A stretch of DNA of 64,000 nt from Microcoleus sp. (lineage in GTDB: Bacteria; Cyanobacteriota; Cyanobacteriia; Cyanobacteriales; Microcoleaceae), in the NCBI GenBank assembly GCA_042408215.1, contig JAYFMW010000006.1:288001-352000 (forward strand), written 5' to 3'. Position 1 is the first letter of the stretch. Each line of letters begins with the position of its first letter. The position numbers were made by a program, and so were the translations under genes. A model generated the notes under the pieces. The model did no database searches, was not told where the DNA came from, and saw nothing but the letters and a program-made list of their open reading frames with translations. Positions 12,779 through 53,163 of the stretch are shown one piece after another.

Positions 12779-13056
12779 TCAGTCAGTCAACTTGCTCGTT
12801 GATGTCACCACCAATGAGTAGAGGTCGGTCTGTCCCCAAGCGTTAATTTCGGCGTGCCCCGCCGTATTTAAGTTAATTCCTGCTTGTCTCAATCCTTTTG
12901 CCAAAATGTTCAAAGCTGCATTGAGATCGCGGTCTAGTACCGTACCGCACAGGCAAATATGAGTCCTGACTGAGAGCGATTTCTGGACACGATTCCCACA
13001 GTTTGCACAATCCTGGGAAGTGTATTGAGGGGCAACAGCAACCACTGTTTTACCGT
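12779..13056 (-). pseudogene. tnpB: C-terminal fragment of TnpB of element A (zinc ribbon and RuvC-III)
   Basis: YGKTVVAVAPQYTSQDCANCG...HICLCG...DRDLNAALNI. Confidence 0.9.
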
Positions 13057-14467
13057 ATAGCTGGTAAAAGTATAGTCGTTTATTACATGACATGGGAGGC
13101 ATTGAGTCCCTCCCCTTTCGCTTTCACTTCGAGCGGATTAACCCGCCTCGGCTGAACTACGCCCACGACCTATCCCATTGCTAAAAGCATTTGGGATTGC
13201 TTTTCTCAAAATATTATAAGACCCATTAACATCGGCGTTAATCAATCGACCCTCCGACGTTCTGTACAATCCTCTTTTAATTCGCTTCCCACTAAATGTG
13301 ACATCGAAGGCTCCAATATTCCCGTAGACAGGAATTGGATCTAAATTCAGGAAGTTTGATTGGGAAGTATAAGATTCTTCTTGCTCTATTACCTTTATTC
13401 CGAGCAATTTCGCTTTGTATTTCAACATCTCAATTAGTCGAGTATGAGGAATGCTGACAAAGTTTTGATTGGTTTTATTGCCTAAATTAATCTCATTTTG
13501 ACCTTGTAAGTTTTTGCCAATTACTAGCGTCCCAATCCCTTGTGATTCGAGCAGATTGATAATCTGCCGACTGCTGTGGTGCAAGTAGTTATCAACTTTT
13601 TGATTGCGACAACGAGTCAGGCGTTGAATCCGTGATGAGGAGAAGCGATTTCCTTTTAATTGAGATTGCAGTTGTGCCTTACGCTTGTTGTAGAATTGAT
13701 TAATGGATTTCAGTGGTCGCCCGTTAATCAGTAAAGGGACAAATCCCGGCTGATTTAAAGTTAACGCCACTAAATTATTCAGCCCTAAATCAATACTAGC
13801 TACTAATTCTTTTGGGTTTTCATCAAGGGTGGACTCCGGCTCAGTATAGGCATCGTAAATTACCTCAACTACATAGGAATCACATTTTGGCACTAATCTA
13901 ATTTGACAAATTCGCTCTGGCTTTACCTGGGTTTTAATTAAAATATTAGTACCGGAAAGCTTGATAATTCCTTTCTTTAGTTCTTTGCTACTAATCGCCT
14001 GGATTGTATAGACGAGAATATTCCGACCCTTGACTTTATCTTTGTACTTCGGTAATTTCGGGCGATCAGTAAATTTAGTGGGTTCAATTTTGTAAGCTTT
14101 GATTGCTTCAAAAAAAGACTTCCAATTCTTGTCTAATATCATTAATATTTGTTGACTTACCTTGGCTGGTAATTCCTTGTATGCTTGATGATATTTCATC
14201 AAACGATTCATTTCGTTATAATTGATATAACCCCATCCGTAGACAAAACTTTGACGGATAACGTAGTTAGCCGCGTTGTACAAATTTTTGGATTTAAAGG
14301 CTAAGTCGTCAATTTCAACAAAACGATTCTCGGTGGATTTAATGATGTGTCTCTCTGCTAGTTGCATTTAGACTCTCCATTTTTTAACCTTCGCAATAAT
14401 TCTTGCTTTTTGACTATATGATACTACCATTGCTTACTACTGCTTACAAACTTAATGAAGTTTTATA
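13057..14467 (-). mobile_element. IS607-like element B (tnpB only, no recombinase), nested in element A
   Basis: Ends are defined by identity with the mini-copy at 52642-52897: GTAT|T(A/G)TAAAACTTCATTAAG ... CTTTTACCAGCTAT|. The IS607 assignment is inferred from the TnpB type and the non-hairpin ends. Confidence 0.8.
13138..14367 (-). CDS. tnpB: RNA-guided endonuclease TnpB (no zinc finger, rearranged RuvC-II)
   Basis: MQLAERHII, SKNLYNAANY, SIDLGLNN, LVIGKN, QEESYTS, GKRIKRGLY, INADVNGSYNI. Confidence 0.92.
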   Translation of the reverse strand: MQLAERHIIKSTENRFVEIDDLAFKSKNLYNAANYVIRQSFVYGWGYINYNEMNRLMKYHQAYKELPAKVSQQILMILDKNWKSFFEAIKAYKIEPTKFTDRPKLPKYKDKVKGRNILVYTIQAISSKELKKGIIKLSGTNILIKTQVKPERICQIRLVPKCDSYVVEVIYDAYTEPESTLDENPKELVASIDLGLNNLVALTLNQPGFVPLLINGRPLKSINQFYNKRKAQLQSQLKGNRFSSSRIQRLTRCRNQKVDNYLHHSSRQIINLLESQGIGTLVIGKNLQGQNEINLGNKTNQNFVSIPHTRLIEMLKYKAKLLGIKVIEQEESYTSQSNFLNLDPIPVYGNIGAFDVTFSGKRIKRGLYRTSEGRLINADVNGSYNILRKAIPNAFSNGIGRGRSSAEAG

Positions 14468-50862: not shown

Positions 50863-51040
50863 GGGTCTTTACAAAACTTAATTTTTTGTTGATTATAACG
50901 TTTCTCTAATCTAAAATCGAAAGTCGATCGCCATAACTCGATCGCCCATATCCTGTCCGGTGAAATAGTTATAATACTTTTGTTCGACTTTTGAGAACCC
51001 GGAAATAAAACGCGATCGCCGTTTATTGAGTGTAATAAAT

Positions 51041-52657
51041 ATGTTACGAATAACTGAAATAAAACTCCCCCTCGATCATCCAGTAAATGCGATCGCCGAC
51101 AGCATTCTCAAAAAGCTGCACATTCCCCCCGAAGAATTGCTCGGCTATTCCATCTTCAAGCGCAGCTACGATGCTCGTAAAAAACCAGAAATCCTGCTTG
51201 TCTATATTGTGGATGTGGAAACGACACAAGAAAAGCAAATTTTGGCGCGCTTCACAAAAGATCCTCATGTGATGGTAACACCAGACATGAGTTATCGCTA
51301 TGTAGCCGAAGCTCCCAGAAATTTGACGATTCAGCCCATTGTGATTGGTACAGGGCCTTGTGGGATGTTTGCGGGGCTGATGCTGGCACAAATGGGATTT
51401 CGCCCTATCCTTTTAGAACGTGGTAAATCGGTGCGCGATCGCACGGTTGATACCTTTGGATTTTGGAAGAAAAAAACCGAATTCAACCCAGAATCTAACG
51501 CCCAGTTTGGGGAAGGAGGCGCGGGGACTTTTTCCGATGGGAAACTCTACAGCCAAGTTAAAGATCCTCAGCATTATGGACGCAAGGTGTTGACGGAACT
51601 TGTGAATGCGGGAGCTTCACCGGAAATTTTATATATCAATAAACCCCATATCGGCACTTTTAAACTGGTGGGAATTGTCCAAAGTATGCGCGCCCAAATA
51701 GAATCTTTGGGCGGTGAAATCCGGTTTCAAACTCGTGTAGCAGATATTCACATCGAAAATGGAAAAGTCCAGGGACTTACCACCGCTAGTGGGGAATATA
51801 TTGCTAGTAATTATATAGTTCTGGCGGTGGGACACAGCGCCCGCGATACTTTTGAAATGTTGTTTTCGCGCGGGGTTTACATCGAGGCTAAACCGTTTTC
51901 TATTGGTTTTCGGGTGGAACATCCCCAAAGTATTATCGATCGCTGTCGTTTTGGCGATCGCGCGGGCCATAAGCTTTTGGGAGCCGCCGATTACAAACTG
52001 GTTCACCATTGCCAAAATGGTCGTTCTGTGTATAGCTTCTGTATGTGTCCCGGTGGATTGGTGGTGGCCGCGGCGTCAGAACCGGGGCGACTTGTCACCA
52101 ATGGAATGAGTCAATATTCTCGCAATGAACGCAACGCCAACAGCGGAATTGTGGTGGGGATTACGCCGGAGGATTATCCGGGTCATCCCTTGGCGGGAAT
52201 TGAGTTTCAACGTCGCCTAGAAGAACGGGCATTTGAGTTAGGAGGTGGCACTTACAACGCCCCAGGACAGCTTGTGGGGGATTTTTTGGCAAATCGCCCC
52301 TCGACGGCGCTTGGCGCTGTGCAGCCCTCTTATACGCCGGGAGTTGTGATGACTGATTTGAGCGAAAGTTTGCCGGATTATGCGATCGCAGCCATCCGCG
52401 AAGCACTTCCGGCTTTTGACAAACAGATTAAAGGATTTGCGATGGATGATGCGGTGTTGACTGGGGTGGAAACGCGCACTTCTTCACCGATTCGGATTAA
52501 ACGCAGGGAGGATTATCAGAGTTTAAATACAGAAGGTCTTTATCCGGCGGGGGAAGGCGCAGGATATGCGGGTGGAATCCTGTCGGCGGGGATTGATGGG
52601 ATTAAGGTGGCGGAGGCTGTGGCTTTGAGTATTTTGCGTATTGTAAAACTTCATTAA
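51041..52657 (+). CDS. NAD(P)/FAD-dependent oxidoreductase
   Basis: IGTGPCG, FGEGGAGTFSDGKL, FCMCPGG and GEGAGYAGGI; the last codons come from the inserted element. Confidence 0.92.
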   Translation: MLRITEIKLPLDHPVNAIADSILKKLHIPPEELLGYSIFKRSYDARKKPEILLVYIVDVETTQEKQILARFTKDPHVMVTPDMSYRYVAEAPRNLTIQPIVIGTGPCGMFAGLMLAQMGFRPILLERGKSVRDRTVDTFGFWKKKTEFNPESNAQFGEGGAGTFSDGKLYSQVKDPQHYGRKVLTELVNAGASPEILYINKPHIGTFKLVGIVQSMRAQIESLGGEIRFQTRVADIHIENGKVQGLTTASGEYIASNYIVLAVGHSARDTFEMLFSRGVYIEAKPFSIGFRVEHPQSIIDRCRFGDRAGHKLLGAADYKLVHHCQNGRSVYSFCMCPGGLVVAAASEPGRLVTNGMSQYSRNERNANSGIVVGITPEDYPGHPLAGIEFQRRLEERAFELGGGTYNAPGQLVGDFLANRPSTALGAVQPSYTPGVVMTDLSESLPDYAIAAIREALPAFDKQIKGFAMDDAVLTGVETRTSSPIRIKRREDYQSLNTEGLYPAGEGAGYAGGILSAGIDGIKVAEAVALSILRIVKLH

Positions 52658-52897
52658 GATTGTAAGCATCAATAGACAATGGTAGTATCATATAGTCAGA
52701 AGTGTCGATTGATTAACGCCGATGTTAACGGGTCTTACAATATTTTGAGAAAAGCAATCCCAAATGCGTTTAGCGATGGGATAGAGAGCTGCGTAGTTCA
52801 GCCGAGGCGGGTTAATCCGCTCGAAGTGAAAGCGAAAGGGGAGGGACTTCATGCCTCCCACGGCACTGTAATAAATGACTATACTTTTACCAGCTAT
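52642..52897 (+). mobile_element. Internally deleted mini-copy of element B (left end, tnpB 3' tail and omegaRNA region)
   Basis: 52642-52698 matches the reverse complement of 14411-14467; 52704-52897 matches the reverse complement of 13057-13250. Confidence 0.9.
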
Positions 52898-52932
52898 TTC
52901 AGGTTTATGAAGTAGGGACACTCAAGCGTGCT

Positions 52933-53129
52933 CATTGGTGTCAACTTAAGGCCAAACCCTGTCACAGACTACTGTTTGACGATTAAGGCCAGATCCCCCC
53001 TAACCCCCCTTAAGAAGGGGGGGACAGGAGTCCGATCAAAGTCCCCCTTCTTAAGGGGGATTTAGGGGGATCTAGACTTAGGTAAAAGCGAGAGATACCA
53101 AGGGTTTCAGGCTTAAGTTGACACCTATG
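52933..53129 (-). mobile_element. IS4/IS231-like MITE, reverse orientation
   Basis: CATTGGTGTCAACTTAAG...CTTAAGTTGACACCTATG; closely similar to the 36609-36805 copy. Confidence 0.85.
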
Positions 53130-53163
53130 GGCACGCTTGAGTCTCCTCATCAACCAACTGTTT

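Follow-up and report, generated by a model that had tools for sequence, protein, structure and literature searches.

A guide-only IS607-family derivative in Microcoleus that keeps a predicted omegaRNA scaffold and probably uses TnpB in trans

We analysed a 64,000-nucleotide stretch of a Microcoleus genome (G000:C6:288001-352000; the window), which carries a protein-less deletion derivative of the IS607 family at 52642-52897. This mini-element of 256 bp joins a left end of 62 bp (52642-52703, forward strand) to the last ~195 bp of a long element, namely the last tnpB codons and the right end (52704-52897, forward strand, 194 nt), as an earlier note on this DNA had proposed. It is inserted at the 3' end of a gene for an FAD-dependent oxidoreductase (51026-52657, forward strand), to which the left end gives a new stop codon, and swaps the last three residues of the enzyme for four others. 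The insertion is scarless and lacks a target duplication: the target motif and predicted TAM, GTAT, lies directly upstream at 52638-52641, and its TAT, found at the end of the left flank as well as of the right end, forms the recombination core.

The left end, a type that also precedes intact tnpA genes in relatives, contains the promoter-like motif TTGTAA-17-TAGTAT (52660-52688, forward strand; boxes at 52660-52665 and 52683-52688) with an extended -10 TG at 52680-52681. This motif, which the earlier note had described, occurs in all 17 copies of the mini-element and in the long copy of the window, element B. Its predicted activity gains no independent sign from the motif itself, because it matches the sigma-70 consensus at 8 of 12 bases, is absent from the list of a promoter scanner and was inherited with the left end. 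Further along, TATAGTCA at 52691-52698 has an inverted partner, TGACTATA, at 52876-52883; by analogy with the short inverted motifs of CboIStron ends, the two are candidate TnpA-binding motifs. The remainder shares sequence with the tnpB 3' end and extends as far as the right end, as an omegaRNA does, and is the predicted scaffold. Its elements, all on the forward strand, are stem 1 (52757-52761 with 52778-52782, within 52757-52782), which is intact in this copy, a hairpin (52788-52802) whose loop GTAGTT (52793-52798) pairs with AGCTAT (52892-52897) to form a guide-adjacent pseudoknot, stem 3 (52807-52820) and a 3' stem GGGAGG/CCTCCC (52839-52859). The predicted guide is the right flank at 52898-52917, starting where the earlier note had placed it; the single target known for it is the unoccupied insertion site of this very element. 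The last guide bases run into a nested palindromic repeat (52912-53147), for which BLAST gives 850 hits in this genome, including 286 of at least 150 bp.

Element B (13057-14467, minus strand; 1411 bp) is a tnpB-only copy, which ends in the same terminal sequence, CTTTTACCAGCTAT, as the mini-element and is likewise preceded by GTAT, as had been noted. Its TnpB (13138-14367, minus strand; 409 aa) has the RuvC motifs SIDLG, QEESYTS and NADVNG, no Cys zinc finger, and a score of 182.5 bits against NF040570 guided_TnpB (cut-off 100); a PDB sequence search matched no chain, so that this search offered no close solved structure for the clade. Element B itself sits inside the remnant of another, zinc-finger-bearing tnpB (window 12779-13102, minus strand), and its guide therefore comes from a tnpB gene; the guide 16-mer has one more copy in the genome, which lacks a TAM.

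The family membership is defined by an autonomous-type copy on another contig (C5:466588-464643, 1946 bp), which has the ends of the mini-element and carries tnpA followed by tnpB. This tnpA encodes an IS607 serine transposase (NF033518, 130 bits; cut-off 110) and contains an in-frame stop, which confirms the IS607-like assignment of the earlier note. An alternative classification as an IS200/IS605 PATE was rejected, because the autonomous copy encodes a serine recombinase and not a Y1/HUH enzyme, although the mini-element would work in a PATE-like manner. The stop-carrying gene is the sole cognate tnpA of the assembly, and excision, hence the target of the guide, may therefore now be rare. 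Close tnpA matches are present in 15 of 60 genus genomes, and an open tnpA frame of 198-199 aa follows a mini-type left end at 10 of the 11 relatives' loci examined.

Searches with the element ends yielded 39 right ends in the genome, one of them alone and 38 paired with a left end. The paired elements comprise 19 long and 19 protein-less copies. Eighteen of the long copies are tnpB-only (1404-1426 bp) and one is the 1946-bp copy; full tnpB frames with all three RuvC motifs are found in 13 of the 19, and six are broken. Among the protein-less copies, 17 share the junction of the window's mini-element (256-258 bp), and two (279 and 268 bp) have different junctions. The mini-element thus lacks an effector gene in a genome that holds compatible, intact-looking TnpBs elsewhere, and the scaffolds of the TnpB-bearing long copies share alleles with the minis. 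Two pairs of the 17 same-junction minis lie inside near-identical duplicated stretches of 4.7 kb and 7 kb, which leaves 15 distinct sites for these minis and 36 for all elements. GTAT precedes the element at 35 of these 36 sites (one left-truncated copy had its start set by hand) vs a genome frequency of 0.25%, and at 31 of them a purine stands before it, in agreement with the TAM ending in GTAT that had been predicted from two copies. Nearly all family sites are intergenic or at gene ends, and titled records with the mini's right end come mostly from Microcoleus and Tychonema.

Several further observations concern the wider family. A long, frameshifted copy (G000:C3:438444-437038) and a mini of another left-end subtype on a metagenome contig (L228) occupy the same site, by repeated insertion or by replacement. 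A sister tnpB-only family (G000 C1, C5:404472, C12:30773, C16:16482, C28:303273), with 52-53% protein identity, has the left-end start and GTAT of the mini family and a different right end, and may share its transposase. In three copies from relatives (L055, L081, L106), another element breaks the copy a little 5' of the scaffold, at almost identical positions.

The 3' part of the mini-element matches element B with 91% identity (BLAST E 7e-74), and the earlier note had accordingly read the mini as a copy of B that is served by the TnpB 38 kb away. This derivation was rejected: the left end is identical to B at 52 of 60 positions and to two other long copies at 57 of 60, and the 3' part at 179 of 194 and 181 of 194, respectively. 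As B is the closest match at neither end, and as 13 intact-looking family TnpBs exist in the genome, the tie to this particular TnpB is an accident of the window. The common junction, which lies inside a short GAAGG/GGAGG similarity, shows a single origin of the mini, in a deletion that removed the interior of a long element from the left end up to the tnpB 3' end. Its copies show that it spread as a unit, inserting without scars at 15 or more GTAT sites and at further sites elsewhere, with the full omegaRNA fold kept. Judged by their identity of 91-100%, the 17 minis are young copies. Three allele blocks assort freely among the main minis and the long copies throughout the genome, a sign of frequent gene conversion in the family.

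The fold of this scaffold is supported by comparison across families. A single-sequence fold of the mini was no better than those of shuffles (z -0.76), and the within-family consensus showed slight covariation, its 64 members being too alike. Among 14 rows from diverged families, whose counts lean towards support because the structure was named from these same rows, 85% of cells were paired vs 40-48% in slid controls, and 18 cells were changed on both sides, a number reached by 0 of 500 shuffles. Two of the four pairs of stem 3 were changed on both sides, as were all six pairs of the 3' stem in one diverged row (L023). In the pseudoknot, 90.5% of cells were paired, a count lowered by one row (L161) that is misregistered by one base, and 4 of the 14 rows carried compensatory UA>CG changes, so that GUAGUU/AGCUAU in the mini corresponds to GCAGUU/AACUGU and GCCGUU/AACGGU in other families; the enclosing stem had a mean length of 4.2 bp vs 2.5 bp at other positions. 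These compensatory changes support the omegaRNA fold as real, including its guide-adjacent pseudoknot, and with it the retained scaffold that the earlier note had suggested. All six pseudoknot pairs are kept in 17 of 17 minis; stem 1 has lost strength in 10 of the 17 minis, compared with 2 of the 19 long copies. Since the minis are mosaics of long-copy alleles, intact folds may be renewed by gene conversion and not by selection. In diverged families (L159, L164 of G030, L161, L293 and L294), changes in the terminal bases of the right end (TAT, TGT, GGT) are accompanied by changes in the pseudoknot loop, and in G030 the left flank also ends in TGT. An Rfam scan placed no family, RAGATH-18 included, over the mini at E values up to 10, and gave chance hits on the neighbouring palindrome only.

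Read-through from the oxidoreductase gene may transcribe the mini. As the mini lies on the host-gene strand and TnpB is reported to trim the 5' ends of its RNA (PMC10278001), read-through could serve as an RNA source in addition to the left-end promoter. Three RNA-labelled runs (X14, X15, X18) had, in the contigs that represent them, a depth profile that mirrors a DNA run (X3), and are thus uninformative on expression.

One argument for a function of the scaffold comes from its repeated retention. Seven independent left-end/right-end derivatives shorter than 400 bp (main, C7, C30, L003, L052-type, L050-type and L200-type) all keep about 170-240 nt of right end, and all seven junctions stay 5' of the structured part, which in the mini spans 141 nt. 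In the published account of CboTnpA (bioRxiv 10.1101/2023.11.20.567912), 40 bp at the left end and 60 bp at the right end suffice for the transposase; by this analogy, the retained length exceeds what the transposase should need. The chance of a seven-of-seven retention under a simple uniform null is 0.001-0.012, a rough value, as one derivative (L003) was found by a search with the mini itself. A left-end-anchored metagenome scan returned 118 loci, of which 15 are short derivatives, all with a scaffold; 70 lack a family right end in reach (long copies, chance matches and low-GC minis), and 33 are too short. In relatives, the scaffold is missing from one 758-bp copy and from three fragments of the right end, single observations that run counter to this pattern (L110, L125, L136, L142). 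Contigs of 24-37% GC contributed five complete, protein-less minis of 252-329 bp (L201, L242, L243, L260, L264) with the mini's left-end start, GTAT, a near-consensus promoter and a perfect pseudoknot; the four that were aligned show compensatory changes among themselves, no coding remnant is left, and 13 further matches are truncated. An apparent scaffold deletion in G008 proved to be an assembly gap, and a Microcystis plasmid match was rejected as a mini because it is a tnpB end. Viral contigs matched neither end pattern, no plasmid record covers 80% of the mini, and the low-GC mini found no match among plasmid records.

The guide is simply the insertion flank and matches the empty site of its element. 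When the guides of all 38 elements were compared with the genome (GTAT plus 16 nt, up to 2 mismatches), no match was found; the best were three weak matches with 3 mismatches each. Neither an empty paralogous site with TAM and seed in the genome nor a guide base bias beyond the flank was detected. The filled site would escape cleavage, since CTAT, not GTAT, precedes the guide-matching DNA. With no genomic targets, and each guide aimed at its own empty site, this constellation argues for many nucleases serving selfish guides and against the one-nuclease, many-guides targeting system of the earlier note. From that interpretation, the IS607 family, the GTAT TAM, the guide start, the scaffold and a probable use of TnpB in trans thus remain, while the special TnpB link and the many-guides system find no support.

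Comparison with relatives points to a recent insertion in the window, which is absent in close relatives. The exact empty site, GTAT running straight into the predicted guide, is preserved in 2 of 16 relatives' loci (G005, G013). At a third locus (G012), GTAT and 7 guide bases match, and an autonomous-type copy with a tnpA start (G012:C564; L038, L302) is inserted 11 nt downstream of the window's site; the remaining 13 loci have different sequence without GTAT. The junction of the window's mini occurs in 3 of 79 genus genomes, with further sites in G005 and G008, at 11 metagenome loci, and on contigs of four studies. An excision-circle joint was not seen in the contigs searched, which drop rare variants.

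Guide-only transposon derivatives with an omegaRNA acting in trans are an already published concept (PMC10691335, PMC10055086). The standalone omegaRNAs of OMEGA systems are described as effector-less, mobilised and working in trans, and their role is called unknown (PMC10691335). The mini resembles them as a mobilised, effector-less omegaRNA locus in a genome with compatible effectors, but belongs to an IS607/serine-recombinase TnpB family of a cyanobacterium, and its trans use is predicted; to what that report sets out, the family adds mapped ends, empty sites, seven independent origins and a candidate homing footprint. The protein-less, PATE-like IS605 derivatives of Geobacillus stearothermophilus, which according to PMC10055086 "often encode omegaRNAs" and need TnpB in trans, follow the same retention logic with gene-less minimal elements, but are described with a Y1/HUH transposase and hairpin ends, whereas the mini has IS607 ends with a shared TAT core. 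A mechanistic counterpart is CboIStron with its TnpA-S and TnpB, for which the preprint (bioRxiv 10.1101/2023.11.20.567912) reports scarless excision, a TAM equal to the transposase target, and a TnpB that cuts the donor joint and drives element retention and homing in E. coli. Both elements have a right end one base off the TAM (TCGG/TGGG there, CTAT/GTAT here); unlike CboIStron as described, the mini family has no group I intron, uses GTAT as TAM and TAT/AT instead of GG as core, and includes natural protein-less copies. A guide-adjacent pseudoknot is reported as required for the activity of the ISXfa1 reRNA (PMC10711439), and the reRNAs of ISXfa1 and ISFba1/RAGATH-18 (PMC10711439, PMC11061315) combine such a pseudoknot with a scaffold of ~150-187 nt, compared with 170-240 nt kept in the minis; the TAMs given for both differ from GTAT. 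In our literature search, neither natural cyanobacterial IS607 minis nor guide-only homing footprints were the subject of any paper, though preprint supplements may list such minis.

We consider it probable that the mini is a non-autonomous, protein-less and selfish guide-only IS607 derivative, a parasite on the transposase and the nuclease of its family, and that it probably uses the family TnpB in trans. The serine-recombinase TnpA, intact in relatives, would have moved it in trans. Its RNA would be made from the left-end promoter or by read-through, and then be bound and 5'-trimmed by any of the 13 intact-looking family TnpBs. With the DNA to the right of the element as guide, the complex would cut GTAT plus flank, a sequence that would be confined to sites lacking the element, whether left by excision, present on a chromosome copy not yet filled or carried by an incoming allele. 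Repair from a filled copy would restore or spread the element. Cyanobacteria hold several chromosome copies per cell. Empty sister sites would thus be available, much as plasmid copies are reported to supply them (PMC11870625).

A possible footprint of this process was found between petH and prk, where the genome carries one of the two protein-less copies with a different junction (G000:C7:175433-175711; L297, L356), ~190 nt upstream of prk. Twelve of 79 genus genomes share its right-end/guide junction (L345-L355 included), most others hold the empty site, and 11 of the 12 junctions belong to a scaffold remnant of 171-174 bp without a left end, which should for this reason be unable to transpose. 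A tree built from the downstream flank groups five of the filled genomes with empty ones, in a clade separate from the seven remaining filled genomes. The remnant of these five is 97.5% like that of two other-clade genomes, with flanks ~90% alike. Upstream, the alleles at the first 8 diagnostic columns are those of the other clade in all five, and in four this extends through all 11 columns, as far as ~215 bp; downstream, the five have the alleles of their own clade from +18 onward. Two control loci (162 columns) gave no run longer than 2 in four of these genomes, and G017 is admixed. This tract rests on a MAFFT alignment and direct reading, because a re-test by BLAST projection lost most informative columns in an indel-rich stretch and kept 1 column within 210 bp. 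Family TnpBs are present in four of the five genomes, all four that were searched. The remnant thus appears to have passed from one Microcoleus clade to another within a short tract that extends to one side, as guide-driven conversion (homing) would leave it. Gene flow in Microcoleus is well reported, and a single neutral or selected introgression followed by inheritance fits the tract too. That guide-only IS607 derivatives act as independent homing elements, which convert empty alleles with a TnpB borrowed in trans even after loss of the left end, is a tentative suggestion that we regard as somewhat doubtful.

The same elements could also be inert passengers, MITE-like and moved by TnpA, with a scaffold kept through the positions of deletions or a long right-end requirement, and with RNA that is not made or loaded. 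The youth of the minis and their homogenisation with long copies, the weakened stem 1 and a junction in a GAAGG/GGAGG similarity, as a microhomology deletion would give, all agree with this reading. It is harder to reconcile with seven independent junctions that differ in position but never reach from the 5' side into the structured part, with the 60-bp right end that suffices in the CboTnpA preprint, and with low-GC minis that combine compensatory changes and a near-consensus promoter with the loss of any coding remnant; we therefore hold it to be unlikely.

It is very improbable that the minis form a domesticated distributed system which provides TnpB with a guide repertoire against host genes or invaders. 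Many guides with a shared scaffold, many TnpBs and one remnant at the same petH-prk site in 12 of 79 genomes would suit such a role, but the guides lack TAM-adjacent genome matches with up to 2 mismatches and show no base bias outside the flank, the window's insertion is recent, and the TnpBs keep their catalytic residues, unlike repressor-type derivatives; for the same absence of guide matches and the intact catalytic motifs, TldR-type domesticated guides were rejected. Hardly credible, finally, is a selected decoy or regulatory role, in which abundant mini RNAs titrate TnpB, or in which the left-end promoter or the insertions alter neighbouring genes. The 19 protein-less scaffolds vs 13 nucleases and the C7 remnant upstream of prk could be cited for it, as could the intergenic or gene-end position of nearly all sites, but purifying selection on any insertion would produce the same bias.

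Elements of this kind are known, but relatives of the mini carry unusually clear natural traces that enzyme borrowing, as in the preferred reading of a selfish guide-only element, may really take place. If the minis are inert, they are ordinary miniature transposons. The family offers seven independent births that all spare the RNA fold; new are the left-end-less petH-prk scaffold remnant across clades, as homing would predict, and the predicted AT-rich TAM GTAT, preferably after a purine, for an uncharacterised, zinc-finger-less IS607 TnpB clade. With 19 guide-only and 13 nuclease-bearing copies in one genome and known empty alleles, the question of their role now becomes testable. If the homing proposal is true, the 174-bp petH-prk remnant would document in nature how an RNA-only gene drive passed from one species to another, and homing would explain the purpose of standalone omegaRNAs.
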